A DNA stretch of 64,000 nucleotides from NCBI RefSeq assembly GCF_016793225.1, contig NZ_JAEUMN010000081.1, positions 2,001 through 66,000 on the forward strand, read 5' to 3'. The position numbers and the translations under genes were made by a program. Positions 9,756 to 45,030 of this stretch are shown here, one piece after another. The notes below the pieces were generated by a model, which saw nothing but the letters and a program-made list of their open reading frames with translations, had not been told where the DNA came from and made no database searches. The DNA comes from Phenylobacterium sp. (GTDB lineage: Bacteria; Pseudomonadota; Alphaproteobacteria; Caulobacterales; Caulobacteraceae). Each line of letters starts with the position of its first letter. Positions within the stretch are counted from its first letter, which is position 1.

Positions 9756-9784
9756 TCGCGCGGCAGCGTTGTTCTAGCCCAAGG

Positions 9785-9817
9785 AAGGCGCCCCCGGACC
9801 CCCGGGGGCGCCTTTTC
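9785..9817. terminator. Intrinsic terminator hairpin between convergent genes
   Basis: 13-bp perfect stem aaggcgcccccgg / ccgggggcgcctt (9785-9797 / 9802-9814), 4-nt loop, T-tract tttt on the plus strand. Confidence 0.75.
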
Positions 9818-9820
9818 GCA

Positions 9821-25781: not shown

Positions 25782-25782
25782 A

Positions 25783-26727: not shown

Positions 26728-26745
26728 GGGGTCGGGACTCCAAGG

Positions 26746-27549: not shown

Positions 27550-27575
27550 GAGCCCCTCGCCGTCCATGTCCGGGG

Positions 27576-29141
27576 CTATTTGGCGTGCTTTTGGAAGAAG
27601 TTGAAAATCTCCGGCAACTCGGTCTCGAACGCGCTCGCGTGCGTGCCGCCGGGAACCTCGACATACTCGGGCGCGACCCCGCCAGCCTTAAGCGTGGCGA
27701 TCGTCTCGCGAACGCGGTCCAGCATGAGGTCGTCGCGCTCGCCCACGACCACCCGGATCGGCAGCTTCGCGAGCGCCGGGACATCTTCAGCGAGGACGCC
27801 CCCGTAGGCGCCGGGCGCGATGGCCGCCCACATCTGGTTGTGCCGGCCGCCGATCCACCAGGTCCCGCCACCGCCCATCGAGTTGCCGGTGAGATAGCGG
27901 CGGCCAGGGTCGATGTTGAACTCCTCCTCGACCAGGGCGATGACCTGCAGGACATCCTGCTCGCTGCGCTTCACGCGCGTCATGTCGCGTCCCGCGAGAC
28001 CGGCGAGGCCACGTTCCGAGCCGTAGGCGCTGTTCAGGCGGTAACCCAAGGGCGTCACGACGACAAAGCCGTGCTGCTCGGCGAGCTTCTGCATACGGCC
28101 GCCGTCGCGACCCAGCATGTTGGTCTCGTCCAGGTTCGCGCCATGCAACGCGACGACCAGCGGCCAGCGCTTCGCCGGGGTCCAGCCGGTCGGAACGTAG
28201 ACCTGGTAGGGGATGAGCTCGCCCGTCTCGGCGAACCGGTAGGCGCGGTTCTGGAGGCCCGTAGCCTGGCGCACCGGGTCGCGGCCACCCTTGAGCGCGG
28301 CGACGATTTCGGAGGAGCGCCTGATCGCCGCCGGAAAGTCGTACGAGACGACCTCGCGGCGGCCCGCCCGCATGGCCTGCGCCAGCGCGAAGGGATACTC
28401 GGCCAGCGCCTTGGCCTCCTCGTGTCCCGTGATGCCCGACAGGTTGCGCCTGAGCTCTGCGTAGCGCGCGTCCAGATCTCGTACGAGGTAGACGGGCTGG
28501 ACGATGTCGGCGCTGGCAGACCCGGCCGACAGCTTGGCCAGCAGCAGGTAGGCGCCGTCCGGCAGGTCCGCGAGCCGGGCGGCGATGCCGGCCGGATAGC
28601 TCTCGAGCTGACCCCGGGCCAGAGGACGGATCAGCGCGCCCTTTTTCGGTGTCGCCGATGTCGTCGGCTGGCTCGCATAGAGGTCGAGCGCATAGGTCAC
28701 CGGCCCGCTCGCGGGATAGAGCAACTCGGCCGTCAGCACGTCCCCCTGGCCCGTCCAGATCTGGCTGGGTGTACGGAGCGCCAGGGCGCCCAGTCTCTCC
28801 TGCTCCGGCGTCCAGGCGCGGCCCCCCATCAGGCTGACCGCGCGCCAGAGCGTCCGACGGGCCTCGGGCTCGGGCTGCCTCGCCGCCTCGGCGACCATCG
28901 CGTCGACCTGAGCCTGCAACACCGCCGGAGCTCCCACACGCAGCTGGCCGACCGTCTGGGTCAGCACCTGCATCCCAGGCCGGAAGGCGAGACGCCAGGC
29001 GGCGTCCTCTTGGACGGGCGTCGCCCGGGCGGCCGGTTCATAGTCGACGAGCTGGGCGCGCGCCTCGACGCCGGCGACCGCACTGATCGCCGCGCCGAGA
29101 ACCATCGCAGCCCGCGCAGGGAACGCGCTTGCGCGGGTCAT
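27576..29141 (-). CDS. Secreted two-domain esterase (C-terminal alpha/beta hydrolase, GxSxG = GNSMGG)
   Basis: ATG 29141 lies 3 nt after the TonB-receptor stop. Signal peptide MTRASAFPARAAMVLGAAISAVAG; LVVALHGANLDE...GNSMGGGG. Confidence 0.75.
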   Translation of the reverse strand: MTRASAFPARAAMVLGAAISAVAGVEARAQLVDYEPAARATPVQEDAAWRLAFRPGMQVLTQTVGQLRVGAPAVLQAQVDAMVAEAARQPEPEARRTLWRAVSLMGGRAWTPEQERLGALALRTPSQIWTGQGDVLTAELLYPASGPVTYALDLYASQPTTSATPKKGALIRPLARGQLESYPAGIAARLADLPDGAYLLLAKLSAGSASADIVQPVYLVRDLDARYAELRRNLSGITGHEEAKALAEYPFALAQAMRAGRREVVSYDFPAAIRRSSEIVAALKGGRDPVRQATGLQNRAYRFAETGELIPYQVYVPTGWTPAKRWPLVVALHGANLDETNMLGRDGGRMQKLAEQHGFVVVTPLGYRLNSAYGSERGLAGLAGRDMTRVKRSEQDVLQVIALVEEEFNIDPGRRYLTGNSMGGGGTWWIGGRHNQMWAAIAPGAYGGVLAEDVPALAKLPIRVVVGERDDLMLDRVRETIATLKAGGVAPEYVEVPGGTHASAFETELPEIFNFFQKHAK

Positions 29142-29143
29142 GG

Positions 29144-32029: not shown

Positions 32030-32780
32030 CCTGTTTCCCTTCCCCTTGTTCGCATTATTCGGATTACGAACTTTAATTCGCTATTTGAATACACTTGTGG
32101 ACTTGGGTAGGCAAGTGCGGTGTCGCTTGTGAGCTTCGTTGGCGGACGGGAGGGGCGTCGGTGCGAGCTAACCGTCCGCTCAATCGAGCCGATCCGCTGA
32201 TCACGGAGATGCTGGAGATATGCGAGAACGCCAGCGCGCTCACAGCTTCCGCCTACAGGCGGACTCGGCAAGCTTCGGCTTCCGGTCACTCACCGCCCAA
32301 GGCCATTCCGCCCGACCACCGCAGGCCACCCCTTCCTCACGTTCGCGGCGTCCAGGAGCATCAACCGGCTCGATGCGATCTTGGGCGATCTCGGGCTTGA
32401 TGGTTCGGGCCGAGTCAGTGAGCGTAAGTGCCCGGCTCAAGGGATTGATGCGTCGCGACTCCGATGAGTGAGGGCGAAGGCGAGCATGGCGCCAGGGCCG
32501 GTGAAGACCGGGCCACGGAAGACGGACGAAGGGCCTTTTTCGCGGGCCAATATCGCGAGGCCTTCTCCCACTTTCACTCCGCGCTGCTCAACCGCGCGAT
32601 CCGGTGGTTCAGAGAGGAAGGCGTCCGGTTCCAGCGACCGTCGGGAGAGTTTACGCCGCCAGTTCACCTTTTCACGACCGCAGGCTGCCCGTGGTGCGGC
32701 GCCCACGGGCTGTTTGATGACCGGCTCGTGTGCGTGCCGGTGGGCCTCGCCCGGCGCGGGGTGCGCCGGGCGAGGCGTCG

Positions 32781-33494
32781 TCAGCCGATGTCGCCGGCGC
32801 TGATGTCAGCCAGCGTTCGCCCGACGAGGATCACGGCGGACTCGACGTGGTGCTCGCCGAGTTCGGTCGCGAAGACGATGACGTCCGCCCCGACCTGGAC
32901 GGCGACATAGTCGGCGCCGGCCGCCATCCGGGCGTTCGCCGCCGCGAGGGCGGCGTCGTAGTCGGCCGCCGCGCCTGTGGCGAAGTTGGCCGCCGTGGCG
33001 GTGAGACCGTCGTCGTCGAAGACCAGCTTGTCCTCGCCGTGGGTGAAGTCGACGATGCGGTCCAGGCCCGCCAGCGCGCGCCCCCCGTCTCCGACCTTGA
33101 ACACGTCGGCGCCCGGGCCGCCGATCAGGCGGTCGGCCCCGTCGTCGCCGTCGAGCGTGTCGGCGCCGGCGCCGCCGTCGAGGGTGTCGTCGCCGTCATC
33201 GCCACGCAGCCGGTCGTCCGCGGCGGAGCCCGACAGGCTGTCGCTCCCGTCGCCGCCACGGAGGCGGGCCGCGTCGCCACCGCGGTCGTCGCCGGGGGGA
33301 TCGTCCGCGCCACGGCCGCCGCGGTCGTCTCCCGGCGGATCGTCGGCGCCCCGCCCGCGGCGATCGTCGCCCGCCGGATCGTCCGCGCCGCGCCGGCCGG
33401 TGTCGGCCGCCGTCGTCGTACGGTCGTCGGGCTGGGTGTCGTCCCGGCCACGGCCGCGACCGGAATCGTCGCCGGCTCTGTCTTTCTTAGCCAT
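32781..33494 (-). CDS. RTX-like calcium-binding protein with Asp/Arg/Gly-rich tandem repeats and T1SS-type C-terminal domain
   Basis: Start at MAKKDRAG (GAGGAA RBS). The upstream ATG at 33533 falls inside the promoter motif. GGxGxD nonapeptide run GGDGSDSLSGSAADDRLRGDDGDDTLDGGAGADTLDGDDGADRLIGGPGADVF. No N-terminal signal peptide. Confidence 0.75.
   Translation of the reverse strand: MAKKDRAGDDSGRGRGRDDTQPDDRTTTAADTGRRGADDPAGDDRRGRGADDPPGDDRGGRGADDPPGDDRGGDAARLRGGDGSDSLSGSAADDRLRGDDGDDTLDGGAGADTLDGDDGADRLIGGPGADVFKVGDGGRALAGLDRIVDFTHGEDKLVFDDDGLTATAANFATGAAADYDAALAAANARMAAGADYVAVQVGADVIVFATELGEHHVESAVILVGRTLADISAGDIG
33276..33392. repeat. Three imperfect 39-bp tandem repeats (encode RGADDP(A/P)GDDR(R/G)G x3)
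   Basis: Read directly from the DNA and the translation of the RTX-like gene. Confidence 0.7.
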
Positions 33495-33528
33495 CAGGCA
33501 TTCCTCACTGTGGAAGCCCCCACATGAG

Positions 33529-33557
33529 GACAACGGCGCCGCCGGCCGGTTTATTCC
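33529..33557 (-). promoter_or_regulatory. ECF-type promoter motif upstream of the RTX-like gene
   Basis: Minus strand GGAATAAaccggccggcggcgcCGTTGTC (spacer 15), ending 34 nt upstream of ATG 33494. One of four near-identical sites. Confidence 0.6.
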
Positions 33558-33560
33558 CGC

Positions 33561-34343
33561 CTAGAAGAACAGCGTCGCGGCGACCGCGACGGCGCCGTGG
33601 CCCTGGGCGGCGCCCAGGAGGTCGTCGTCGGGGCCGAAGTAGGTCGCCTGGCCCTGCAGTTCGACATTGCCGAAGCGTCGGGCAAGGCCTGCGCCCACGT
33701 CGTACTGCGTGCGCCGGATCTCGCTGCCGCGGCGACGGTCCACCGGAACCAGGAGGCCGGCGCGGCCGAAGGCCTTCCAGCCGGGCGCGGGCGTCACGGT
33801 CGCGGTCGTTGTGGCGTAGAGCGTGGCGGCCCGCTCGCCCAGGTAGTTGGGCGAGTAGTAGACGTGGGCGCTGAACCGGCGCGTCGAGACGCCCGCGTAG
33901 AGCTCGTTGTAGGCCACCGGGTACCGCGGCCGGTAGTATTCGGTCACGTCGGTGCGCGAGACGCCGACCTCCCAGCTGGAGTCGGCGTCGAAGCGGCGCG
34001 CATAGCCGGCATAGACCTGATAGCCCGAGACCTTCGGGCCGTCGTGGCGCGTCGCCGCCGCGATCACCGAGCCGGAGGCGTAGAGCCCGCTCTCATGATC
34101 CAGGCTGCCGGTGGCGACGAGGGCCGGTCGCTCGGCGCTGAGAGAGTACCCGCGATAGAGGTGATCGCTGACCGCCGACAGGCTGAACGTCGGCTGGGCG
34201 TGCGCGGGCGTCGCCGCCGCGCCCAGGACCGCGGCCGCAAGGGCGAGGAAAGCCCGGATTTCAGCGGCCGTTGTCGGGCGAGGCGCAGGCGCAGTTCGCC
34301 CGGGAGGCCACCCGCAGCAGGGAAGCGCAGGCGTCGATCTCAC
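33561..34343 (-). CDS. TorF-like small beta-barrel outer-membrane protein (start codon uncertain)
   Basis: Signal-like RAFLALAAAVLGAAATPAHA-QP, alternating beta-strand pattern, C-terminal ...VAATLFF. The only canonical in-frame start is GTG 34343, 27 codons upstream of the signal peptide. Confidence 0.6.
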   Translation of the reverse strand: MRSTPALPCCGWPPGRTAPAPRPTTAAEIRAFLALAAAVLGAAATPAHAQPTFSLSAVSDHLYRGYSLSAERPALVATGSLDHESGLYASGSVIAAATRHDGPKVSGYQVYAGYARRFDADSSWEVGVSRTDVTEYYRPRYPVAYNELYAGVSTRRFSAHVYYSPNYLGERAATLYATTTATVTPAPGWKAFGRAGLLVPVDRRRGSEIRRTQYDVGAGLARRFGNVELQGQATYFGPDDDLLGAAQGHGAVAVAATLFF

Positions 34344-35493
34344 CGCGCGCCCGCGACAGAAGGCGCGCGCGCGGCTGCGGACGGCGCTCGTCGACCAGGG
34401 CCAGGAGTCCGCTCACGTGGGCCGCGGCGTACGAACTTCCGTCGACCAGAAACCACCGTCCCCCCGGCTGAGTCGTGGGCACGTCGCGCCCGGGCGCACT
34501 GTAGACACCGGGGCGCGGGCTCGCCAATGCCTCGTCGGCCACGGCGACGACGCCCGTGTGGTTGGCCGGGAAACCGCCGTCGGGCAGGCCGCGGTCATAG
34601 GCGGCGACCACCTTGATGCCGCGCGAGATGGCCACATCGATCAGGCGGGCCAGCAGCGGATCGGGCGGCCCGCTGAGGCTGAGGTTGATGACCCGGGCCT
34701 TGGCGTCGATGGCGAAGTGCAGGGCCTGGGCGAGGCTGAGGCTGTCGCACACGGTGTCGCCGGCGCCCTTGCGGGGGGCGCCCTGCCAGCAGGCGCGGAG
34801 CCCCAGGATTCGGGCGCCCGGCGCCACGCCCACGATGCCGATCCCGTTGTCGCCCCGGGCCGCGATCACGCCGGCCACGCCGGTGCCGTGCGTCTCGGGC
34901 GCGGCCGGACGACCGGCGACGAAGTTCCGGGTGAGCTCGACCTGTCCGGCCAGGTCCGGGTGGGTGGGATCGACCATGCTGTCGACCACGGCGACCCGCA
35001 CCCCACGGCCGACGGCCAGTTCGTGCAGGGCGGCGAGACGCCACTCGCCCGCAGCCGGCTGGGCGGCGCGAAGCGGGTCGGCCGAGCGCGGCGCGCCCTG
35101 GGCATGGAACATCTGGCTCGGCTGGGCGTCCTGGACGGCGCTCTCGCGGGCGAGGAGCCGCGCGACCTCGACCGTGGAACGCCCGTCGGGAACGTTCATG
35201 ATGTAGCAGTCGACGCCGAGCAGCGGCATGGGCCAGCCGTCCACCAGCTCGAGGCCATGGGCGGCGGCCAGCTTCTGGGCGAGGCGGCGGCGCACGGCCT
35301 GGCCGGCCTCATCCCCGTAGCCGCCGCCGGCGGAGACGCCGGGGCGGGCATGGCCGGGCGGCATCCGCATCAGCACCAGCACCTGATGCGGGTCGGCCGC
35401 CGAAGCCGCCGGCGCGTCCATGGCGAACGCCAGCTCCGCCGGCGCGGCGAGCACGGCGAGCGCAAGCAACAGGGCTCGGAACTTGCGGATCAT
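34261..35493 (-). CDS. Secreted S8 (subtilisin-family) serine peptidase with N-terminal propeptide-like region
   Basis: Signal MIRKFRALLLALAVLAAPAELAFA. Catalytic D (VAVVDSMVD), H (HGTGVAGVIA), S (GSSYAAAHVSG). ATG overlaps the anti-sigma stop (ATGA). Confidence 0.9.
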   Translation of the reverse strand: MIRKFRALLLALAVLAAPAELAFAMDAPAASAADPHQVLVLMRMPPGHARPGVSAGGGYGDEAGQAVRRRLAQKLAAAHGLELVDGWPMPLLGVDCYIMNVPDGRSTVEVARLLARESAVQDAQPSQMFHAQGAPRSADPLRAAQPAAGEWRLAALHELAVGRGVRVAVVDSMVDPTHPDLAGQVELTRNFVAGRPAAPETHGTGVAGVIAARGDNGIGIVGVAPGARILGLRACWQGAPRKGAGDTVCDSLSLAQALHFAIDAKARVINLSLSGPPDPLLARLIDVAISRGIKVVAAYDRGLPDGGFPANHTGVVAVADEALASPRPGVYSAPGRDVPTTQPGGRWFLVDGSSYAAAHVSGLLALVDERRPQPRARLLSRARGEIDACASLLRVASRANCACASPDNGR

Positions 35494-36110
35494 GGGGCGT
35501 CCACCGGCTCGGCAAGGCTGACTTCGGGCCGCTGGCGAAGCTGCGGCAGGATGCGATCCCGGCTTGCGGCCGGCACCCGGACGAGCCAGGCGCCCGCGGC
35601 GTTCGGGCCGCCGACCACGCGCCCCTCGACCCCGGCGAGCGTGTCGCGCAGCTGGGCCTCGGTGGCGTTGGGCGCGAACATGATCATCACGTTGGGCGCG
35701 TCGGATCGGGCCGCGGACGACAGAGCCTTGTACTCGGCGTCCGACGCGCCGGTTTCGCGCGCGGGCGAAAGAACCACGACGGCGCCGGCGAGCAGGGCGG
35801 CCTGGGCGGCGAGGGCCGCGGCGACCCAGGCGCGGCGCGGGCGGACAGCCTGCCGGGCGCCGAGCGAGACGACATTGTCGCCGGCCGCGATCGCGCGGAT
35901 CCGCGCGGCCATCGCGTCGGGCGCGGGGCGATCGAGGAGCGCGTCGAAGGCGCCGCGCACGGCCCGGTCGCGCGCGGCCATCGCGTCGAGACGGACGCGG
36001 AGCGCGGCGTTCGACGCCAGCTCGGCCTCGATCTGGCGGGCGCGATCCGGGTCGGCTTCACCGTCCAGGTAGGCCATCAGGGCGTCGTCGGTGATCATCT
36101 CGGGTCCCAT
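35490..36110 (-). CDS. Putative anti-sigma factor (single TM, periplasmic C-terminal domain)
   Basis: N-terminus ITDDALMAYLDGEADPDRARQIEAELASN is the usual anti-sigma helix pattern (no Zn motif). TM WVAAALAAQAALLAGAVVVL. Divergent from the ECF sigma gene. Confidence 0.7.
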   Translation of the reverse strand: MGPEMITDDALMAYLDGEADPDRARQIEAELASNAALRVRLDAMAARDRAVRGAFDALLDRPAPDAMAARIRAIAAGDNVVSLGARQAVRPRRAWVAAALAAQAALLAGAVVVLSPARETGASDAEYKALSSAARSDAPNVMIMFAPNATEAQLRDTLAGVEGRVVGGPNAAGAWLVRVPAASRDRILPQLRQRPEVSLAEPVDAP

Positions 36111-36138
36111 GGGGGAACACTGGCTATTGTCTCACACC

Positions 36139-36166
36139 GACAACGACGCCACCGCAGATTTATTCC
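36139..36166 (-). promoter_or_regulatory. ECF-type promoter motif upstream of the anti-sigma/S8/porin operon
   Basis: Minus strand GGAATAAatctgcggtggcgtCGTTGTC (spacer 14), ending 28 nt upstream of ATG 36110. Confidence 0.6.
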
Positions 36167-36184
36167 AGGGTCCCCAAACTGGGT

Positions 36185-36802
36185 TTGGATCCTGGCTCGC
36201 GCGTTGATGCGGCGCAAGGCGAGCGCTATCCAGCCTGGGCAGACAGGTGGGCGAGGGACTGCGGATCGCCCGCCTTTTTCGAGAGCGCCTTGGCCGGACG
36301 GGCTGATATCGCCGAGCGGATCGTGGAGCTTCTGCCGCGCCTGCGGCGCTTCGCGCTGACGCTGACGCGCCGGGAGCATGACGCCGACGACCTGGTTCAG
36401 GGGACGGTGGAGCGCGCCCTGGGCCGGCTCGACAGCTGGAAGCCCGACACGCGCCTGGACAGCTGGCTCTTCAAGATCATGCAGAACCACTGGATCGACC
36501 AGGTGCGCGCGCAGCGGCTGCGCGGCGCGTCGGAGGGGTTGGACGCCGCCGACGAGGTCGCGGGCTCTGACGGGCGGCATGTGACCGGCGTGCGGCGTGA
36601 ACTGCAGGCCACGCTCGAGGCCGTGCTGCGCCTGCCGGAAGAGCAGCGCGCCGTGGTGGGTCTGGTGCTGGTGGAAGGGCTGGCCTACCGCGAGGCGGCC
36701 GAGATCCTCGCGGTGCCGATCGGCACGGTCATGAGTCGGCTGTCGCGCGCCCGCGCGGCGCTGGAGCTGGCGCTCGAGGGCGCGCCCGAGCCCAGGTCCT
36801 GA
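36185..36802 (+). CDS. ECF (group IV) RNA polymerase sigma factor
   Basis: Region 2 DADDLVQGTVERAL...WLFKIMQNHWIDQVR and region 4 LPEEQRAVVGLVLVEGLAYREAAEILAVPIGTVMSRLSRAR. The true start is probably the in-frame TTG at 36290 (170 aa). Confidence 0.9.
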   Translation: MDPGSRVDAAQGERYPAWADRWARDCGSPAFFESALAGRADIAERIVELLPRLRRFALTLTRREHDADDLVQGTVERALGRLDSWKPDTRLDSWLFKIMQNHWIDQVRAQRLRGASEGLDAADEVAGSDGRHVTGVRRELQATLEAVLRLPEEQRAVVGLVLVEGLAYREAAEILAVPIGTVMSRLSRARAALELALEGAPEPRS

Positions 36803-36831
36803 GTCCGAACCGCGGGTCCGGACCCGGGCGC

Positions 36832-38991
36832 CTATGGATGTGCGACGACGACCAGGGTGTTGGTCCGGCGCGACGCCGTCGCCAGGCAGGTCCTGAGCGT
36901 TTCGGGGTCGAGCGCGGCGAAGCTCTCGTCCAGGATCGTGAGGTCGGCGCCCTGGAGCAGCGCGCGGGCCAGGAAGACGCGGCTGCGCTCGCCGTGCGAC
37001 AGCTGCCAGCCGGTCTCGCCCACGGGCTGGTGCAGCCCCGCCGGCATGCGATCGATGAGCGCCCCAAGGTCCAGCTCGCGGCAGAGCGCTTCCGCCTCCG
37101 CAAGGTCTTCGGCCGTGGCCGGCCACCGACGGCCCATCAGCAGGTTGAAGGCCAGCGAGCCCGACAGCAGGTGATTGTCGTTGAACTGCGGGGCGGCCGT
37201 GGCGCCTCGGCGCCAGGCGGCGCCCAGCGTGTGGTGGTCGAGCCCGTTCAGGCTGAGCGCGCCACGGGTCGGCTTGCGCAGACCCGACAGCAGCGCCGTC
37301 AGGGTCGACTTGCCGCCGCCCGAGCCGCCCTCGAGGAGGACGCGATCGCCGGCGTGAAGCGTGAGGTCCACTCCGGCGAGCACCGGCGCGTCCTTCGCGT
37401 AGGCGTAGGCGAGCCCACGGGCTCTGAGAACGGCTCCGCCGGAACGGCGATCCGTCGGCGAAAGGTCCAGGGGCTCGGGTTCAGGGCAGGCGTCGCCGCG
37501 CGCGAGGTCGGCAACCTGGGTCCAGGCGATCCCGGCCCGCGACAGCCCCGCCAGACCGGTCACGAGGCCGAAGAGCCCGCGTTGCGCCAACAGGACGCCG
37601 CCAAGGCTGATCGCGAGCGCGGCCGGCGTCGGCGGGTGCGGGCCCGCGAAGGCGGGGGCAAGCCCCGCGACGCCCGCCACGAGCCAGGCGGTGGGCAGGA
37701 CAGCAAGAAGCGACATCGCCGCCCGGTCGAAGAGCCCGGACTCGGCGAGGTAGGCCCGCAGGTCAGCGTCCTCCGCGGCGTCCCGGCGCGTCGGCCGCTC
37801 CTGGGCCAGGCGGGTCCGGTGGCCGACCATGGCCTCGATCATGCGCTGGCTCAGCGCCAGCCGGCGAAGCGTCCACGACCGCATCCGCCGATGGAACCGA
37901 TGACCCAGCACGGCCAGCGCGGCCGCGAACCCCGCGAGCAGCGCCAGGTGCCAGCCGGCCGCCGCCCCCGCGGCGAGGGCCAGGGCGGCGAAGGCCAGTT
38001 CGAGTACGGCGATCAGGGCCGCGAGGCCGCCGTTGAGCGCCAGGCTTTCCAGCGCCTGGCTTTCCATCACGCGGCCGATCACCTGGCCGAAGCCCTGGCG
38101 ACCGACGGCGTCGGGGTCGGCCTTAAGCGCGCCTGCAAGCAGTCGCGCCTTCAGCCGGCGACCGAGATCGACGGCGATCCGCGCCTCCAGGGCGCCCCCG
38201 GCGAACCGCAGCGGAACCAGGGTGGCGAGGAGCAGCAGCCAGGCCGTGAACCAGCCGAAGTCGAGGCGACCGTCCAGGACCGAGCGCCCGATGAGCGACC
38301 AGCCGAGCATCTCGGCGGCGTAGAGCAGTCCGAAGATCCCGAGGGCGGCGGCGGCGATCCAGGGCAGCTTCATCTGCAGGGCCTGCCGCCCCATGGAGGC
38401 GCCGGCCGGTTCGCGCAGCAGCCAAACGCCGCCCACGCGTTCCGACGCGAGCCGGTCGGCCATGAGCGCGCGGCCTACGTCGCGGCGCCGGCGGCCCGTG
38501 AGCCCGGCGTCGTCGAGGATCGGCGCGATGCGGGGAGCCAGACCGCCCTCGATCGACCAGCAGAGGCAGGCGCGCAGCGCCTCGACGGGGCAGCCCGAGA
38601 CCGCGAGGTCCGGTCCGAGCACCCGAAGCGTCCGGCCGCTGGCGCCGAGGAGCAGGACGAACCCCATCTCGCGGCCCTGGCGAACCAGCGCGATCGCGGG
38701 GGCCGCCTGCCGCAGCATGTCGGCGACGGCGCCCGCGGGGACGTCGACGGGCTCGGCCTCGAGCCCCAGGGCGCCCGCGGCGACCGGCAGGAGAGCCTCG
38801 GGATCCTCGCCGCAAGCCTGCGACGCCATGAACTGGGAGTCGGTGCGCGCGACGCCCGAGCGACGCGCCAGCTCGGCCAGGCCCTCCCCCAGACGGTCGA
38901 TCGGCCACCAGACCGCGCCGACGGCGGCTGCGGCCTCCGCGTCCAGCGGCGCGGCGGCGAGATACCGGCCCTTGGGCGCGCCCTGGGTCAT
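36832..38991 (-). CDS. ABC exporter (TMD+NBD) with degenerate N-terminal C39-like domain
   Basis: ATG 38991 overlaps the upstream stop (ATGA). Walker A GGSGGGKST, signature LSHGERSRV, Walker B LTILDESF. In the N-terminal roughly 200 aa the peptidase His position reads GFVLLLG where the partner has HFVVVW (by-eye alignment). Confidence 0.85.
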   Translation of the reverse strand: MTQGAPKGRYLAAAPLDAEAAAAVGAVWWPIDRLGEGLAELARRSGVARTDSQFMASQACGEDPEALLPVAAGALGLEAEPVDVPAGAVADMLRQAAPAIALVRQGREMGFVLLLGASGRTLRVLGPDLAVSGCPVEALRACLCWSIEGGLAPRIAPILDDAGLTGRRRRDVGRALMADRLASERVGGVWLLREPAGASMGRQALQMKLPWIAAAALGIFGLLYAAEMLGWSLIGRSVLDGRLDFGWFTAWLLLLATLVPLRFAGGALEARIAVDLGRRLKARLLAGALKADPDAVGRQGFGQVIGRVMESQALESLALNGGLAALIAVLELAFAALALAAGAAAGWHLALLAGFAAALAVLGHRFHRRMRSWTLRRLALSQRMIEAMVGHRTRLAQERPTRRDAAEDADLRAYLAESGLFDRAAMSLLAVLPTAWLVAGVAGLAPAFAGPHPPTPAALAISLGGVLLAQRGLFGLVTGLAGLSRAGIAWTQVADLARGDACPEPEPLDLSPTDRRSGGAVLRARGLAYAYAKDAPVLAGVDLTLHAGDRVLLEGGSGGGKSTLTALLSGLRKPTRGALSLNGLDHHTLGAAWRRGATAAPQFNDNHLLSGSLAFNLLMGRRWPATAEDLAEAEALCRELDLGALIDRMPAGLHQPVGETGWQLSHGERSRVFLARALLQGADLTILDESFAALDPETLRTCLATASRRTNTLVVVAHP

Positions 38992-41636
38992 GCGGCCTCC
39001 GTGAGCGCGCCGCGCTCCAGCCTCAACCGCCGCCAGTTCGAGCCGCCCCAGACCCCCGCGCGCACCTCCCGCTCGGCGGTCAGAAGGCGCGCGTAGCGAC
39101 TGTTGGCTTCGACGAGCCGGGCCGGCGCGCCGTCCTCGACGATGCGGCCGTTCTCGACGACGAGAACCCGGGGGAAGTCGAGGGTCTCCTCGATGTCGTG
39201 GGTGACGCAGAGCAGCGTGGTTCCCGCCCACCAGGCGCGGGCCTCGCCGAGCAGCGCCTGGCGTTGACCGCGGTCGAGGCCGCGGAATGGCTCGTCCAGC
39301 AGCACCAGCCGCGGCGCATCGACCAGGAGCGCGCGCGCCAGTCGCACGCGCTGACCCTCGCCGCCCGAGAGGCGGCCGCCGCCTTCGCCGATGACGGTCC
39401 GCAGGCCCTCGGGCAGGCGCTCGGCGATATCGCGCAGCCGCGCGGCGTCGATCGCCCCAGCGAGCCGTTCCGGCGTCTCGCGCTCGTTGGCGTAGGCGAG
39501 GTTCGCCGCCAGCGAGGTGTTCCAGAGCTGCACGGATGGATCCACCCAGGCGGTCCGGCGGCGCAGCGCCTGCAGTCCGCCGGGCGGCGCCGGGAACCCG
39601 TCGATCCGCAGCTCGCCGTCGGACAGCCGGTTCCAGCCCATCAGAACACCCACCAGACTGGACTTGCCGGCGCCGGACGGCCCCACCACGGCGAGATGCT
39701 CGCCGGGCGCGATGTCGAGCTCGACGTCCTCGAGGATGCGGTGGCCGCCGGCCATCACCGCGCCGCCGCGGATCGTCAGGGACGCCGCGGCCTCTGGAAC
39801 AGGCTCCTCGCTCGCTTCGGGTTCATCGGGCGCGGCGAGGGGCTCCATCAGGCGCGCAAGGGTGTTGCGCTGGGCCGGGATCTGCCGGCCGAGAGCATTC
39901 AGCTGAGCGCCCAGCGCGGGAACCTTCAGCGCCCAGTAGACCAGCAGCAGGTCGCCGCCCTGGACGCCGCCCGCGCGCTGGAAGTGCAGGCCGAGGAACA
40001 GGCCCACGGCGGCGATGCATGCCATCGCCTGGACCGCCTGGGCCGCAAGGCCGAAACGCAGCAGGCCGCCGTAGGTCCGGGCCCACTCCACGAGCAGGTG
40101 CTCGTGCTGTCGCTGCACGCTGGTTTCGGCGGCGTGAGCGCGGATCGGCGCGAGTCCCAGCAGCGCGTCGAGGTAGAAGACGCCCAGAGCCGCCCCGTGG
40201 GTGCGCATGCGCAGATCGCGCTCGGCGAGCTGGGTCTGGATCAGCGCCGGCGTTCCGGCCGCCACCAGGGCCAGCAGCAGACCCGCCCACCACGCCTGAG
40301 GCGCCAGGGCCGCCAGCGCGGCCGTTGTGAACAGCAGTTCCAGGCCGTTCTGGAAGAGTTGCAGCGCGATGCCGGGGGCGCCGCGCGTCAGATGCAGGGC
40401 GTGGGCGCGGTCGGCCATGTCGCTGACGGATCGGCTCCGGAAGTAGCGGTCGCCGAGCCGGGGCAGCTTCGCGGCCAGCCGCATCCGCAGCGCCATCTCG
40501 AGCCGCCGCCCCAGGCGCAGGGCCTCGGCGCCCATGGGGATGTGCAGCGTCAGCAGCGCCGCCAGGAAGACGATCAGAAGGCCCGCCGCCGCCCACCGCT
40601 GCGCGGGCAGCGCCAATCGTTCACCGATGTCGAACAGGCCGCGGAACAGCAGCGTCTCGAGGATCACCGCGGCGACGGCCGCCACCGCCGCGAGGCCGAG
40701 CGCCAGGAGACCCAGGCGGCCCTCGGCCCTGAGCAGGTCGAACGCCGTGCGCAGAGGGCGGGGCCGCGGCTCGGCCAGGGCCGCGGCCACGTCGACGGGC
40801 GCCTCGACCGCGTCGGTCATGGGGGCGCTTCGCCCGCGGACGCTCAGCAGCACGGCGCCCGAGAGCCGCACCGACTGGGGCCGGCCCGGCGTGTTGGCGG
40901 GGTCGGGCGTGACGCTCCAGTACGCCTCGGGAATGCGGGCATAGATGTCGTCGGCCGAGGCGAGCGTGGCGTCCACGAGAGCGTTCAGGAGCCGCGCCGC
41001 TTCCGCGCCGGGTCGCAGGCCCTTGGCTTCGACGAGGGCCGTCGCGAGGCGGACAGCGGCGTCCAGGACCGCGAAGGTCCACCAGCGGGGATCCGCCTCG
41101 GCGCGGCTCAGGAGGTTGCGCGCGACGGACCGGCCGACGCTAAGGGCTTCGAGGCGCACGCCGAGCGGCGCCAGGAAGGCGTCCGTGCCCGCCCAGGCGC
41201 GCCAATCGGCGGCGGCGACTGTCGTGCTGTGCCTGTAGACTTCGTCGCGGAAGCGGGCGGCCCGGACCCAGCGGCGGCCGACGGCCGGGTCCATGACCTG
41301 CAGCCATGGCCCCACGCGCGACCACACCACGACGAAATGGCGCGCGGTCTCGGCATGGCGGACCACCACGATGGCCGGCAGAGCTCGGCTCTGCGGCAGG
41401 TCGAGGTGATCGATCGGAATCAGAACCTGCTCGGCGTCCAGGCCCAGTTGCACGGCGACGGTCTCGAGCGCGTCGATGGACGCGCCGTCCACGTCGATCT
41501 GGCAGGCCTCGCGGAGACGTCCGTAGCTGACCTGCAGCCCGTGCCCCCCGGCCAGGCACGCCAGGGCGGCCGGGCCGCAGTCCATGGCCGAGGTCTGGAC
41601 GACCTCCGGGGCGAACCGGCGCGCGGACCGCGTCAT
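38988..41636 (-). CDS. Peptidase-C39-domain ABC exporter (bacteriocin/double-glycine-leader type)
   Basis: ATG 41636 overlaps the HlyD stop (ATGA). C39 motifs VVQTSAMDCGPAALACL (Gln/Cys), ARHFVVVW (His), VMDPAVG (Asp). Walker A GPSGAGKSS, LSGGEGQRV, LVLLDEPF. The 1386-aa track ORF is an artefactual extension. Confidence 0.9.
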   Translation of the reverse strand: MTRSARRFAPEVVQTSAMDCGPAALACLAGGHGLQVSYGRLREACQIDVDGASIDALETVAVQLGLDAEQVLIPIDHLDLPQSRALPAIVVVRHAETARHFVVVWSRVGPWLQVMDPAVGRRWVRAARFRDEVYRHSTTVAAADWRAWAGTDAFLAPLGVRLEALSVGRSVARNLLSRAEADPRWWTFAVLDAAVRLATALVEAKGLRPGAEAARLLNALVDATLASADDIYARIPEAYWSVTPDPANTPGRPQSVRLSGAVLLSVRGRSAPMTDAVEAPVDVAAALAEPRPRPLRTAFDLLRAEGRLGLLALGLAAVAAVAAVILETLLFRGLFDIGERLALPAQRWAAAGLLIVFLAALLTLHIPMGAEALRLGRRLEMALRMRLAAKLPRLGDRYFRSRSVSDMADRAHALHLTRGAPGIALQLFQNGLELLFTTAALAALAPQAWWAGLLLALVAAGTPALIQTQLAERDLRMRTHGAALGVFYLDALLGLAPIRAHAAETSVQRQHEHLLVEWARTYGGLLRFGLAAQAVQAMACIAAVGLFLGLHFQRAGGVQGGDLLLVYWALKVPALGAQLNALGRQIPAQRNTLARLMEPLAAPDEPEASEEPVPEAAASLTIRGGAVMAGGHRILEDVELDIAPGEHLAVVGPSGAGKSSLVGVLMGWNRLSDGELRIDGFPAPPGGLQALRRRTAWVDPSVQLWNTSLAANLAYANERETPERLAGAIDAARLRDIAERLPEGLRTVIGEGGGRLSGGEGQRVRLARALLVDAPRLVLLDEPFRGLDRGQRQALLGEARAWWAGTTLLCVTHDIEETLDFPRVLVVENGRIVEDGAPARLVEANSRYARLLTAEREVRAGVWGGSNWRRLRLERGALTEAA

Positions 41637-42796
41637 GCCGCGCCGCCGGCGCCCAGGGCCTGGCCCGCGGCGCGGAGGACCAGCACGGCCGGGCTCACGC
41701 GTTCGACGGCGACCTCGGCGGCCCCCGCCATGCCGTGGCGCAGGGGAAGTCCGCCGCCCGTGGCGGGCGAGACCGACAGATCGGCCCGAAGCAACCCTCC
41801 GCGCGGTTCGCTGGCCACCCGCAGCACGCGGGCCGTGACGACGCCGTACTGGGCCCAGGGATAGCCGTCGAGGCGCAGGCGCGCGGTCTGCCCCGGGCGC
41901 ACGCGCCCCAGGGCCCCGCCCGACGGGAACTCGGCCACCAGCGTCAGGCGGCCGTCGGGGACGATGGTCGCCAGCTTCTGACCGGCCTCCACATAGGCCC
42001 CGGCGGCCAGGGTCGGGGCCTCGCCGATCACGCCATCGGCGGGAGCGCGCACCTGGCGCGCGTCGATGGCGGCGCGGAGGCGCTCGGCCGTGGCCCGGCT
42101 GGCCAGCAGGTCGCCCTGCATTCCCGCGATGGCCTGCCGCAGCGCCTGCAGGCGGGCCAGGCCGTCGCTCTGGCTGAGGCGTGCATCGTAGGCCGCCTTC
42201 TGGGCTTCGGCGGCGATGGCGTCGCGTGCGGAGCGGGCGCGCCGGGCGTCGGTCGCGTAGCGGTAGGCCTCGACATCCGAGAGGATGCCCCTGTCCAGCA
42301 GACCCCGCATTCTGCGGTCCTTCTCCTCGGCATAGTCGACCCCGGCGGCGGCCTCGCGCTCGCGGGCGCGGGCCGAGCGAAGGGCGGCGTCCGCCGCACC
42401 CCGATCGGCCGCCAGCGAGGCCTGCAGCGCCTGGGCCTCGGCCTCGGCCGCCGCGATCCGGGCCGGCAGCGCCTGCAGCCGCGCCTCGGCCTCGGCCAGG
42501 TCCAGCCGCGCCTGGGTGGCGTCGAGTTCGACCAGGACCTCGCCGGCGGTCACCCGGCGGCCGATCTGCAGCCGCGACGACACGAGACGTCCGGCCTCGA
42601 CGGGCGAGACATCCCGGGCGGCTACGACGGCTTCCAGGCGCGCGCGCCGCGAGACTTCGTAGAGGGTGACCCGCCCGAACACGAACCACGCCGTCCATGC
42701 GGCGAGCAGCACGCCGGCGCAGGCCAGCGCGAGGCGCGACGCCCGTCCCGTCTCGAGCGCCAGGGCGCGGGTGGTTCGGGAGAAAGGCGAGGCCAT
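41633..42796 (-). CDS. HlyD-family membrane fusion (secretion adaptor) protein
   Basis: Start moved to MASPFSR (ATG 42796, GGAG 10 nt upstream) because ATG 42832 lies inside the promoter -10 motif. One N-terminal TM, long coiled coil (ARLDLAEAEARLQAL...), C-terminal barrel. Confidence 0.85.
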   Translation of the reverse strand: MASPFSRTTRALALETGRASRLALACAGVLLAAWTAWFVFGRVTLYEVSRRARLEAVVAARDVSPVEAGRLVSSRLQIGRRVTAGEVLVELDATQARLDLAEAEARLQALPARIAAAEAEAQALQASLAADRGAADAALRSARAREREAAAGVDYAEEKDRRMRGLLDRGILSDVEAYRYATDARRARSARDAIAAEAQKAAYDARLSQSDGLARLQALRQAIAGMQGDLLASRATAERLRAAIDARQVRAPADGVIGEAPTLAAGAYVEAGQKLATIVPDGRLTLVAEFPSGGALGRVRPGQTARLRLDGYPWAQYGVVTARVLRVASEPRGGLLRADLSVSPATGGGLPLRHGMAGAAEVAVERVSPAVLVLRAAGQALGAGGAA

Positions 42797-42827
42797 TTCG
42801 GCGCGGCTCCGGTCCGGGATTCCCAGC

Positions 42828-42856
42828 GACAACGGCCGCGCGTTGACGATTATTCC
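42828..42856 (-). promoter_or_regulatory. ECF-type promoter motif upstream of the HlyD/ABC/ABC operon
   Basis: Minus strand GGAATAAtcgtcaacgcgcggcCGTTGTC (spacer 15), ending 31 nt upstream of ATG 42796. Confidence 0.6.
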
Positions 42857-42924
42857 GCGCGATTTTCGCTCGAGAGTCTCCGCGCGCGAGGGGCCCCGGC
42901 GCCCGGATTTCTCGTCGGCCGGAC

Positions 42925-42953
42925 GGAATAAGCGGCGGCGGCGCGACGTTGTC
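42925..42953 (+). promoter_or_regulatory. ECF-type promoter motif upstream of the 635-aa gene / peptide operon
   Basis: Plus strand GGAATAAgcggcggcggcgcgaCGTTGTC (spacer 15). ATG 42961 begins 7 nt after the motif, which implies a leaderless or near-leaderless mRNA. Confidence 0.6.
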
Positions 42954-42960
42954 CGACCGA

Positions 42961-44868
42961 ATGCCCGGAAGCGGCGCCATGGCGGCGGCGCTGGGCGGTT
43001 GGGGGACGATCCGCTTGCGCGACCTGGTCGACGCCGCCGCCTGTCCGCTGTCGCGGACCGAGGCCGACGGGCTGGATTTGCGTGCGGCGCTGGTGCTGCC
43101 GATGCGCCGCAGCATGGTCGTCCAGCGCGGCCTGAGCCCCGACGGCAAGCCGGAACTGACCCTGTTCCATGACGGCCGCGAGATCAGCTTCGACGAGCCG
43201 GAACTGTTCGGTTTCGCCGAGGCGCTGGCCCGGCAGGACAGGTTCCTGGCCGGCGAGGCGACGGGGTGGGGCGACGGTTACGCCTGGTCGCGCGTGGCGC
43301 CGCTGCTGACGGAGCTTGTGTCCGCCGGCGTCCTGATGCGCGCGGAGGCCGCCCCGGCCGCTTCCGTGGTTCCGGGCGTGCGCCCGTCGCCGCTGCCGCC
43401 CGCCCGCTCGGCCCGCGCCCGCTGGTGGGACGAGGGCGAGACCCTGATGGCCGAGCTGACCGGGCGGCCGCTCGAGACCGGCTGGCTCGAGATGGTGATC
43501 CCCGTCTTCCGCATCGCCCACGCGGCGCTCGACGCCGATGGCCGCCAGGTCGGCGAGGCGAACGTCTTTCCCCCGGCGCTGCGGATCGAGACGCCGACGC
43601 GGTGGCGCACCTGCCCGTACGAGGGTTCGCGCCATCAGCCCGACCGGCCGATGAACGTCGAGGCGCTTCGGGGCATGCAGGCGCACTGGAAGCAGATGAT
43701 GGCCGCGCTCGGCCGCATCCGCGCCGCCTGGCTGGCGCGGACGCCTGACGCTCAGGGCCGCGCGCTCACGATCGGCGAGATCGAACGCCTCGCGGTCTGC
43801 GTGCTGGGCGTGCCGACCTACGCCCTGGTCCGCGCCAGGGATCCGGTGGCCAGCGGTTCGCTGCATCCGACGCTTTCGTCGCTGTTCCGGGTCACCGACG
43901 GGCTGCGGATGGTCATGCACCAGATGCTGTTCGTGCCGCTGGGCGAGCCGACGCGGGATCCCGACGAGACCGTGAGCGCGGCCGACATCCACGCCTATGC
44001 CGAGCGGAGCTACGCGTTCCACTCCGAGCATGGCGTCTGCGCCGGGCCGCCGCACATGGTGGCGGAGTTCCTTCGTGTGATCGTCGAGGGCGAAGCGCCC
44101 GACCCCGATGCGGCCGCGCCGCTGGCCCCGGCCGTCGAGGCGGCCCTGGCCGACCTGCCGGCGGCGATGGACTACGCCATGCTGGGCCTGCAGGCGCACG
44201 CCGCGACCTTCTCGGTCTGGCCGGCCGCCGCGCGAGCCTATGCCGCGCTGGCCGACATACTGTCCGATAACGCCGACGCCGGTCTTGCCGCCCGCTTCAG
44301 GACCCACCTAGGCGCGCTTCGGACCGCCAGCTACCTCGGAGACGAGGCGCTGCGGGCCCGGCGCGAGGCGGTCTACGAAGAGATGCTCGACGCTTGCGGG
44401 CGGTGGCTGGGGCAAGCCCGGGACGCCTCGCGGATCGCCCGCGCCCGGCGTGACGCCCGGGCCAGGATGGCGGCGCAAGGCGACGCGGTGCGCGCCGTCC
44501 TGGCGGCGCGCCTAGGCCCGGCGGCGGCGGACGCGGCGGCCGAGGCCGTCCTCGACGCCTGCGCGGCCGCGATGGCGGCGATCTCGGTCGGTTCAGAGGC
44601 GCAGCGCGAGATCAACGCGCGCCTGGGGCGGCCGGCGCCGATCCGAAGCTTCGACGCCGCCGACCTCGACCTGCACAACCGGCTGAACGACCTGCAGCCC
44701 CGCCGGCTGCCCTACCTCTTCGACGAGCTCGCCGACGCGTTCGGGCTCGCGCTCACCCTTTCCGCCGACGGCCTCCGCCTGGCCGCGGCGAACCCCCATT
44801 CGGCGGCCACGCCGTCCGGATCGCGCGCAAACCCGCGCGCGTCACTCAACTCAGGAATGGCAAAATGA
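42961..44868 (+). CDS. Orphan 635-aa cytoplasmic protein, no family recognised (candidate peptide-modifying/recognition enzyme)
   Basis: Long ORF with high GC3 throughout. The TTG 42949 in the track lies inside the promoter motif, so ATG 42961 (or 42979) is preferred. No TM or signal. The N-terminal roughly 110 aa has a PqqD/RRE-like strand-strand-helix pattern (inference). Confidence 0.7.
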   Translation: MPGSGAMAAALGGWGTIRLRDLVDAAACPLSRTEADGLDLRAALVLPMRRSMVVQRGLSPDGKPELTLFHDGREISFDEPELFGFAEALARQDRFLAGEATGWGDGYAWSRVAPLLTELVSAGVLMRAEAAPAASVVPGVRPSPLPPARSARARWWDEGETLMAELTGRPLETGWLEMVIPVFRIAHAALDADGRQVGEANVFPPALRIETPTRWRTCPYEGSRHQPDRPMNVEALRGMQAHWKQMMAALGRIRAAWLARTPDAQGRALTIGEIERLAVCVLGVPTYALVRARDPVASGSLHPTLSSLFRVTDGLRMVMHQMLFVPLGEPTRDPDETVSAADIHAYAERSYAFHSEHGVCAGPPHMVAEFLRVIVEGEAPDPDAAAPLAPAVEAALADLPAAMDYAMLGLQAHAATFSVWPAAARAYAALADILSDNADAGLAARFRTHLGALRTASYLGDEALRARREAVYEEMLDACGRWLGQARDASRIARARRDARARMAAQGDAVRAVLAARLGPAAADAAAEAVLDACAAAMAAISVGSEAQREINARLGRPAPIRSFDAADLDLHNRLNDLQPRRLPYLFDELADAFGLALTLSADGLRLAAANPHSAATPSGSRANPRASLNSGMAK

Positions 44869-44978
44869 AGATCAAGACGAACATCCGCGCCGGCGCCGGC
44901 AAGCAGAAGCGCAAGAGCGGCGGTGAGTCCGAGGCCCCGGCCTACGTCCCGCCGGTGAGCCGCTGCGTCGGCATCTGA
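44865..44978 (+). CDS. 37-aa peptide MKIKTNIRAGAGKQKRKSGGESEAPAYVPPVSRCVGI (candidate Gly-Gly-leader precursor)
   Basis: Below the ORF-track size cutoff. ATG overlaps the TGA of the 635-aa gene (ATGA). AGGAA 7 nt upstream. 35 of 37 codons end in G/C. Followed by a hairpin. Internal GG (positions 19-20) matches C39 exporter specificity. Confidence 0.55.
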   Translation: MKIKTNIRAGAGKQKRKSGGESEAPAYVPPVSRCVGI

Positions 44979-44996
44979 GCCGCACGGCCAGACAGA

Positions 44997-45030
44997 GAGG
45001 GGGCCGGCCGCACGCCGGCCTCCTTCTTCG
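44997..45030 (+). terminator. Hairpin after the peptide gene (possible intrinsic terminator)
   Basis: 12-bp stem 44997-45008 / 45014-45025 (2 G-U pairs), loop cgcac, then a weak U-rich ccttcttc tail. Confidence 0.4.

Follow-up and report, generated by a model that had tools for sequence, protein, structure and literature searches.

In a 64,000-nt stretch of DNA from Phenylobacterium sp. (positions 2,001 to 66,000 of contig NZ_JAEUMN010000081.1; hereafter the window), four copies of the two-box motif GGAATAA-N14/15-CGTTGTC stand ahead of genes for an anti-sigma factor with a protease, an RTX-repeat protein, a three-gene exporter and a small peptide. The locus raises the question of whether these sites are promoters of one extracytoplasmic function (ECF) sigma factor, and whether the genes behind them make up a single functional system, as an original prediction from the bare sequence had proposed. 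It is highly probable that an RpoE6-like, ECF26-type sigma factor, the gene of which lies at 36290-36802 in the same window, recognises the four sites as -35/-10 promoters. What we infer from the findings below is that transcription in the present organism depends on this sigma factor, together with the places where transcripts begin, the signal for activation and the way in which the anti-sigma factor is inactivated.

Both strands of the window (70.7% G+C) were scanned for GGAATAA-N13..16-CGTTGTC. Exactly four matches were obtained, at the predicted positions and with identical heptamers in all of them, and there was no match in any of 100 dinucleotide-preserving shuffles. The heptamer GGAATAA occurred four times in total on the two strands, always within the motif, against a shuffle mean of 0.58, and none of the shuffles reached four copies; the prediction that four paired copies are not due to chance was thereby confirmed. 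CGTTGTC alone was seen 13 times against 7.3 expected in the window, which was unremarkable, indicating that the signal sits in the pairing and in the -35 box. When up to two mismatches were allowed, no further plausible site was detected in the whole window, and a weight matrix trained on the sites of other genomes revealed no weaker sites over the same range, including the region upstream of the sigma gene.

Promoter (a), at 36139-36166 on the reverse strand, has a spacer of N14 and precedes the anti-sigma, S8 protease and porin genes, with 28 nt to ATG 36110 and 40 nt to ATG 36098. The spacer is N15 at the other three sites. Promoter (b) (33529-33557, reverse) starts 3 nt past the stop codon of the porin gene and precedes the RTX-like gene, with 34 nt to ATG 33494, which is itself preceded by GAGGAA. 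Promoter (c) (42828-42856, reverse) lies 31 nt from ATG 42796 of hlyD, the first gene of hlyD-ABC1-ABC2, and promoter (d) (42925-42953, forward), placed back-to-back with (c), precedes the genes for a 635-aa protein and the peptide, with 7 nt to ATG 42961 or 25 nt to ATG 42979. The latter codon is preceded by GGAAG and matches the database record P0001 (629 aa). All four sites are intergenic and each is oriented into the downstream gene, as had been predicted; but of the distances of 7-34 nt that had been given, the 7 nt applies to ATG 42961 only, and the distance from motif to likely start is 25-34 nt at all four sites. A terminator-like hairpin at 33573-33591 (reverse), at the 3' end of the porin gene and immediately ahead of promoter (b), supports (a) and (b) as separate transcription units. 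Another one at 45006-45020 (forward), downstream of the peptide gene, closes unit (d). The back-to-back -35 boxes of (c) and (d) are 68 bp apart (42857-42924) and the interval is G+C-rich; in Sphingomonadales (L054 9914-9937 and others) the back-to-back -35 boxes are a fixed 24-26 bp apart and the interval is A/T-rich.

The only ECF-like sigma factor of the window is a two-domain protein (sigma-2 and sigma-4; Pfam Sigma70_r2 and r4_2) encoded on the forward strand. It had been described as the only sigma factor nearby and placed at 36185-36802; the former held true for the window, but the reading frame, which opens at TTG 36185, more likely starts at TTG 36290, as suggested by alignment with RpoE6 of Sinorhizobium meliloti. 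The two proteins are 49.7% identical over 153 aa (E 2e-46). PRK12511 was the best NCBIfam model, with a score below the cutoff. The rpoE6 region of S. meliloti pSymA (20 kb) was retrieved, the published promoters were located in it, and its proteins were compared with those of the window. The window anti-sigma factor was found to be 31% identical to EcfR6 across the N-terminal domain, and the window S8 protease 29% identical to SMa0142.

RpoE6-dependent promoters determined by rapid amplification of 5' cDNA ends (5'-RACE) or RNA-seq have been reported as GGAATAA-N14-CGTT for ecfR6, the anti-sigma gene, GGAATAG-N15-CGTT for the serine protease gene SMa0142, and GGAATAG..CCGTT for SMa0148 (PMC6180224). 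RpoE6 was assigned to group ECF26 by ECFfinder; the cross-species consensus of this group is GGAATA at -35 and GT at -10, and a serine protease beside the sigma factor belongs to its conserved context, although the function of RpoE6 itself could not be assigned in that study (PMC6180224). The window sites agree with ECF26/RpoE6 promoters in the boxes, the 14-15 nt spacing, the intergenic orientation and the conservation with free spacer sequence, and the proteins agree with the RpoE6 subtype in the co-encoded single-pass anti-sigma factor and the neighbouring serine protease. The original prediction had compared the sites with the EcfG (ECF15) type. The geometry is indeed the same, but the closest class is ECF26 (GGAATA/GT) rather than EcfG (GGAAC): every window site reads GGAATAA, not GGAAC, and the sigma gene neighbours encode a membrane anti-sigma factor and an S8 protease. 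Membership in the EcfG class was thus rejected on both the -35 box and the gene context, and the promoter and its sigma factor are probably an added member of the already-known ECF26, RpoE6-like type. In the published RpoE6 promoter sequences, the start site lies ~9 nt past CGTT. By analogy, transcription of the four window units would be predicted to start near 36133, 33523, 42822 and 42959, with leaders of ~20-30 nt; if translation of unit (d) in fact begins at ATG 42961, its transcript might alternatively be near-leaderless.

For comparison with other genomes, the 635-aa protein was used as an anchor. At least 565 homologues were found at E <= 0.001 in Alpha-, Beta- and Gammaproteobacteria and in Vicinamibacterales, typically 45-64% identical and all labelled hypothetical. 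With a 16-sequence alignment of this family, 77 genomic loci (1.28 Mb) were retrieved, in which GGAATA-N15/16-CGTT occurred 36 times, compared with 1.3 in shuffles. Most of the matches lay within ~100 nt upstream of hlyD, the 635-aa gene, a sigma-antisigma-S8 operon, an RTX homologue in a Phenylobacterium metagenome-assembled genome (MAG; locus L014), or a methyltransferase gene. The motif is kept ahead of hlyD in at least 12 alphaproteobacterial loci and also ahead of 635-aa orthologues, and one-mismatch variants (CGAATAA, AGAATAA, or a CGTC -10 box) were present at equivalent positions in further loci. The L014 RTX homologue is 66% identical to the window protein and has GGAATAA-N14-CGTTGTC upstream. 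In L051 (3418-4000), two tandem precursor genes each carry their own GGAATATT-N14-CGTTGTC promoter; their leaders of ~78 nt are near-identical, and a hairpin lies downstream of each gene.

Bases outside the search pattern were conserved as well, with A as the seventh base in 90% of the sites, C before CGTT in 74% and G or T after it in 95%. Alignment of orthologous loci had been named in the original prediction as a check on motif conservation. When the divergent hlyD/635-aa intergenic regions of nine genomes were aligned without reference to the motif, the invariant columns were almost all those of AACG/TTATTC and of GAATAA/TT of CGTT, so that the motif proved to be conserved and its boxes to be nearly the sole invariant columns. 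Homologues of the window sigma, anti-sigma and S8 genes lie adjacent in only a subset of the loci, namely L014, Paracraurococcus and ~10 loci from Sphingomonadales; two gammaproteobacterial MAGs gave weaker matches. The association between sigma gene and motif was scored on the 42 loci with full flanks. The motif was present before hlyD or the 635-aa gene in 7/7 loci with a sigma homologue and in 1/35 without one (Fisher p = 3e-7).

The absence of the motif ahead of the sigma gene itself, which had already been pointed out, was borne out by the weight-matrix scan and by a mismatch scan of its upstream region, where no site was detected even with up to three mismatches. A sigma-70 consensus scan of 32.5-45.4 kb likewise gave no promoters, including ahead of the sigma gene. 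The motif stands upstream of a joint sigma, anti-sigma and S8 operon in Sphingomonadales, so the signature of autoregulation is present there. The window has its sigma gene in the opposite orientation to the anti-sigma gene, and the motif would drive anti-sigma, S8 and porin only. The rpoE6 gene of S. meliloti is transcribed from an RpoD/RpoH-like promoter that lacks the RpoE6 motif (PMC6180224). Because positive autoregulation is also missing in rpoE6, it is not a defining feature of the RpoE6 subtype, and by analogy the window arrangement would predict negative feedback without positive autoregulation.

The genes behind the promoters were delimited by filtering open reading frames (ORFs) by third-position G+C, because raw ORF lists were useless at 70.7% G+C, followed by domain scans with Pfam and NCBIfam. 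Unit (a) opens with the anti-sigma gene (35490-36110, reverse; Pfam zf-HC2, E 3.5e-5), the product of which carries an anti-sigma domain at its N-terminus, a single membrane-spanning segment and a periplasmic domain. The gene for the S8 subtilisin-like serine protease (34261-35493, reverse; Pfam Peptidase_S8, E 6e-24) follows, its start overlapping the anti-sigma stop by 4 nt. The last gene of the unit (33561-34343, reverse) had been labelled simply as porin, and it now stands as encoding a Gcw_chp/TorF-family protein (PF09694, E 7.7e-12; TIGR02001), a putative outer-membrane porin. GTG 34343 is the sole in-frame start within its first 60 codons and gives an overlap of 83 nt with the S8 gene; the porin gene either overlaps the S8 3' end in this way (34261-34343) or uses a non-standard start. 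Unit (b) consists of the gene for an RTX-repeat calcium-binding protein of 237 aa (32781-33494, reverse; Pfam HemolysinCabind, E 3e-19), the N-terminal half of which is rich in Asp, Arg and Gly. Unit (c) encodes a HlyD-family membrane-fusion protein (41633-42796, reverse; Pfam HlyD_3), an ATP-binding cassette (ABC) exporter with an N-terminal C39 peptidase domain (38988-41636, reverse; Pfam Peptidase_C39, E 2.4e-20, and ABC_tran), and a second ABC exporter subunit without a peptidase domain (36832-38991, reverse; Pfam ABC_tran), of which the N-terminal ~300 aa received no assignment. Unit (d) encodes the 635-aa protein (42961-44868, forward; 629 aa from ATG 42979), a member of an uncharacterised family and a candidate peptide-modifying enzyme, and a 37-aa precursor peptide, MKIKTNIRAGAGKQKRKSGGESEAPAYVPPVSRCVGI (44865-44978, forward), the start of which overlaps the stop of the 635-aa gene (ATGA). 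Genes at ~25000-45000 showed a third-position G+C of 0.83-0.91, compared with 0.93-0.98 in the flanking genes, and this lower value suggests that the block was acquired horizontally as a whole.

From this arrangement the following course of events can be proposed. The sigma factor would presumably be held inactive at the inner membrane by the divergently encoded, single-pass anti-sigma factor, and once freed it would direct RNA polymerase to units (a)-(d). Expression of the anti-sigma factor, S8 protease and porin from unit (a) would give negative feedback and renewal of the sensing module, whereas units (b) and (c) would supply the RTX-repeat protein and the HlyD / C39-ABC / ABC exporter, and unit (d) the 635-aa protein together with the 37-aa precursor, probably by translational coupling. 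The favoured route to inactivation of the anti-sigma factor is that the S8 protease transcribed with it cleaves or captures a prodomain-like domain, for which the exported peptide might be the trigger. The sigma/anti-sigma/S8 module would be a lineage-specific switch of a widespread cluster composed of (c) and (d), usually together with a methyltransferase.

The idea of a prodomain-like sensor came from the C-terminal 89 aa of the anti-sigma factor (window 35490-35760), which matched PF22148 (Fervidolysin N-prodomain) with an E value of 0.002, just below the Pfam cutoff. Five of seven homologous domains also matched this family, with a best E value of 8.7e-6. A single-sequence AlphaFold2 (AF2) model of the anti-sigma factor showed a beta-alpha-beta-beta-alpha order at low confidence (predicted local distance difference test, pLDDT, of 59). 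A profile search of the PDB with the C-terminal domain gave no match, and a full-text literature search for an anti-sigma factor with a subtilisin prodomain returned no paper. Judged by sequence, the periplasmic domain resembles a subtilase prodomain, from which we infer only that the S8 protease may dock on or cleave this domain as the first step of anti-sigma inactivation. Alternatively, by analogy with lantibiotic leader proteases, the S8 protease might trim the exported peptide, a role that would be compatible with one at the prodomain.

Several findings weigh against assigning the four sites to the local RpoE6-like sigma factor and against the proposed switch. The window sigma gene has neither the motif nor a recognisable promoter, so the usual signature of ECF autoregulation is missing; the presumed ECF26 membership is drawn from ~50% identity to a single classified protein; and the sigma-bearing loci are mostly Sphingomonadales, whose common descent makes the 7/7 versus 1/35 association look stronger than it is. 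The S8 protease is linked to the anti-sigma factor by a profile match that is weak and, in the case of the window protein, falls short of the Pfam cutoff, and the periplasmic domain is of another kind in L014 and in S. meliloti EcfR6, which weakens the proposal of an S8-prodomain interaction. The spacing of the boxes is identical in EcfG promoters (GGAAC-N16/17-CGTT), and 27 of the 40 RpoE6 targets in S. meliloti overlap the regulon of RpoE2 (ECF15), the motifs of which are called similar by the authors (PMC6180224). This overlap, together with the lack of autoregulation of the local sigma factor through the motif, could indicate that the sites are ECF promoters read mainly or additionally by a sigma factor encoded outside the window, either EcfG or an ECF26 paralogue. 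However, the fifth base is T and not C, with AA after it, at nearly all sites of the window and of the orthologous loci, and the few one-mismatch variants alter the first G; moreover, the motif tracks the local sigma gene and precedes the operon of that sigma factor in Sphingomonadales, and Pfam and NCBIfam scans showed no PhyR/NepR-type partner in the locus. An outside sigma factor was accordingly considered very improbable. It is barely conceivable that the motif is no promoter at all but instead a short dispersed repeat or a site bound by a DNA-binding regulator. In other genomes, a palindrome, GGAATATTCC, is formed by some of the -35 boxes, but conservation is confined to the two short boxes, the spacer being free; no dyad symmetry spans a site; every site points the same way as the gene downstream of it, at a short and fixed distance; and identical boxes are the experimentally mapped promoters of a 50%-identical sigma factor. 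Chance and a dispersed-repeat origin were both rejected on the shuffle statistics and the motif-blind intergenic alignment.

A more substantial doubt concerns what the units have in common. The regulon could be real without being one functional system, the peptide cluster forming a whole with the sigma/anti-sigma/S8 module and the RTX and porin genes being lineage-specific additions with unrelated roles, and this was regarded as a somewhat unlikely possibility. The 77 loci yielded no porin homologue and, for the RTX protein, a homologue in L014 only; RpoE6 of S. meliloti also drives unrelated neighbours, a glyoxalase-family gene and a DUF6065 gene. On the other hand, the RTX gene retains its own perfect promoter in both Phenylobacterium genomes, and RTX-repeat proteins are classical substrates of ABC/HlyD exporters, which makes a link to unit (c) plausible. 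One functional system, as originally proposed, was thus upheld for the anti-sigma factor and S8 protease, the exporter, and the 635-aa protein with its peptide, but it was weak for the RTX gene, with the motif kept only in L014, and for the porin gene, which was found only here. The other proposal, that the local sigma factor drives all four units, is supported by the homology to RpoE6, the mapped boxes, the conservation in orthologous loci and the co-occurrence of sigma gene and motif.

What the local sigma factor would control was examined next, starting from the 635-aa protein. No Pfam or NCBIfam match was obtained with this protein alone or across 16 homologues, and a sequence-profile search of the PDB gave none either. 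Its AF2 model was of good quality (pLDDT 80.8; predicted template modelling score, pTM, 0.79) but had no global fold match in the PDB. There was one local match, in which ~95 columns aligned with a chain from the McbBCD microcin synthetase complex (probability 0.85, E 0.75). Residues ~53-121 of the model form three strands followed by helices, and might perhaps constitute a peptide-recognition domain. The family has many invariant His, Cys, Asp and Glu positions (for example, in FHSEHGVCAGP). Synteny, translational coupling and the single weak local structural match point to the 635-aa protein as a candidate peptide-modifying enzyme. A role like that of a prenyltransferase or terpene synthase had been considered because of a CaaX-like C-terminus of the precursor, the methyltransferase and the protease, and was dropped as no fold match was found.

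The precursor family comprised 95 small ORFs in 72 of the 77 loci. The N-terminus follows M[KNQ][IV][KQ][TSA]x[IVLM][RQ][AG]G, typically MK[IV]KTN[IVL]RAG; the middle is variable, of low complexity and rich in Ser, Thr and Gly; and 59 of the 95 peptides end in RCxGx, as exemplified by the C-termini VPPVSRCVGI and YTRCAGY. This ending resembles a CaaX box, with Cys fourth from the end. The 37-aa peptide had no match in NCBIfam and lacks an NHLP or Nif11 leader, and a full-text literature search for the peptide motifs returned no paper. In most of the 77 loci, the 635-aa gene has the exporter trio at its side, either divergent or downstream; hlyD is next to the 635-aa gene in most of them, with the second ABC gene kept as the third gene of the operon. 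The best NCBIfam model for the first ABC protein was TIGR03796 (NHLP-type), with a score below its cutoff. An S-adenosylmethionine-dependent methyltransferase of 385 aa accompanies the cluster in more than 20 loci (e.g. L054 2750-3907), covering most of the lineages, and in Sphingomonadales its gene stands beside the sigma gene and has its own motif copy. No methyltransferase homologue was found anywhere in the window, where only 30 bp separate the sigma and ABC genes at the equivalent position. Units (c) and (d) are best read, as far as sequence can tell, as an uncharacterised system for modification and export of a ribosomal peptide.

A parallel was found in Betaproteobacteria. In six loci (L030, L004, L007, L011, L022 and L073; for example, L030 4441-9912), the 635-aa gene is preceded by genes for an ECF sigma factor, a TPR-CHAT protein of 950-1070 aa and an S8 protease; an incomplete seventh locus, L040, keeps the S8 gene. 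This ECF sigma factor is 25% identical to that of the window. Automated dyad-enrichment analysis of the 635-aa upstream regions in motif-less loci gave GC-rich noise only, but reading of the upstream regions led to a motif, TGTAT[CT]-N17-GCTCTGT, which was then quantified: it occurred 26 times with constant spacing, compared with 1.8 in shuffles, and preceded the CHAT gene, S8, the 635-aa gene and hlyD. The window contained no copy of it. Wherever an S8 homologue was found among the 77 loci, an ECF sigma gene or this betaproteobacterial motif was found as well. Equivalent operons are therefore wired to a dedicated ECF sigma factor in two lineages through non-orthologous pairs of sigma factor and promoter, which gives independent support for protease, enzyme with peptide, and exporter as one co-regulated system. 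In a locus from Vicinamibacterales (L012, ~9700-10000), the sequence ahead of the 635-aa gene was read by eye as a histidine kinase C-terminus with its ATPase motifs and not as a sigma factor. The regulator of the cluster appears to have been swapped between lineages.

Taken further, these observations might describe a self-inducing circuit, in which the 635-aa protein, as an enzyme of new fold, and the methyltransferase present in most other genomes would modify the RCxGx end, the C39-ABC/ABC/HlyD exporter would release the product, and the product, or else the processing of it, would redirect the S8 protease in the periplasm onto the prodomain-like domain of the anti-sigma factor, thereby freeing the sigma factor and amplifying the output of all four promoters. 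As a whole, this circuit is speculative and rather unlikely. If true, it would mean a new class of proteobacterial ribosomal peptides and a new mode of ECF activation through a prodomain decoy, the logic of which would have arisen again in Betaproteobacteria with an unrelated sigma factor, a TPR-CHAT protein and an S8 protease. The promoter motif adds little in itself, being the already-published ECF26/RpoE6 consensus; the novel part is the cargo, namely the 635-aa family, the precursor peptide and the exporter. The interest thus lies in an uncharacterised peptide system, its activation switch and a possible prodomain-decoy mechanism, the regulon itself being solid but of a familiar kind. The motif nevertheless offers a handle, as it marks four co-regulated units and delimits the cluster. 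With a single sigma/anti-sigma switch, the cluster could be activated in cultured carriers through overexpression of the sigma factor or loss of the anti-sigma gene, candidates being Novosphingobium piscinae KCTC 42194, Sphingobium subterraneum DSM 102255 and Novosphingobium sp. ERN07; activation is what usually stands in the way when products of silent clusters are to be identified. The findings also provide a testable idea of the function of RpoE6-type sigma factors and of how their conserved protease neighbour may act.

Among known systems, RpoE6/EcfR6/SMa0142 of S. meliloti is the closest (PMC6180224), as the boxes GGAATA[AG]-N14/15-CGTT are shared and an anti-sigma factor and an S8-type protease are among the targets. 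The window arrangement resembles that of S. meliloti, where the sigma gene is transcribed from another promoter and the anti-sigma gene is controlled by the sigma factor. They differ in that the sigma and anti-sigma genes are co-oriented in S. meliloti and divergent in the window, and that EcfR6 has a Cys-containing periplasmic domain whereas the domain in the window and in Sphingomonadales is prodomain-like. Unlike the window, the 20 kb of pSymA around rpoE6 contain no 635-aa gene, precursor or exporter, and the strong targets there are other small genes. EcfG (ECF15), also alphaproteobacterial, shares the CGTT -10 box and the spacing, but its -35 box is GGAAC instead of GGAATAA, and it serves a genome-wide stress response, in contrast to the local gene-cluster regulon of the window, where PhyR/NepR genes are absent from the locus.

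With regard to the cargo, the ECF sigma/anti-sigma pair MibX/MibW of the microbisporicin cluster in Microbispora fires several promoters within a ribosomal-peptide cluster; the exported product induces its own synthesis, and a LuxR-type master regulator acts there as well (PMC4973701). The overall logic of a pathway-specific pair acting on several promoters is common to both, while the phylum and the sigma group differ and the enzymes of biosynthesis are unrelated; Pfam and NCBIfam scans of the window showed no LanB/C/M-type domains, and no LuxR-type regulator was seen. Product-driven feed-forward at the window locus would be a hypothesis by comparison with that system. The three-gene export systems of the NHLP/Nif11 type (TIGR03794/03796/03797) resemble the window in having a HlyD adaptor, a C39 ABC protein, a second ABC protein and a small precursor gene; these models are the best NCBIfam matches of the window exporter, but all three scores are far below the cutoffs (187 versus 853 bits for ABC1). 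Activation of ECF sigma factors is gated by proteases in RseA/DegS and RsiW/PrsW. These share with the window a membrane anti-sigma factor, the extracytoplasmic domain of which is the likely entry point of a site-1 protease, but in the window the candidate protease is a co-transcribed S8 enzyme and the presumed sensor domain is prodomain-like.

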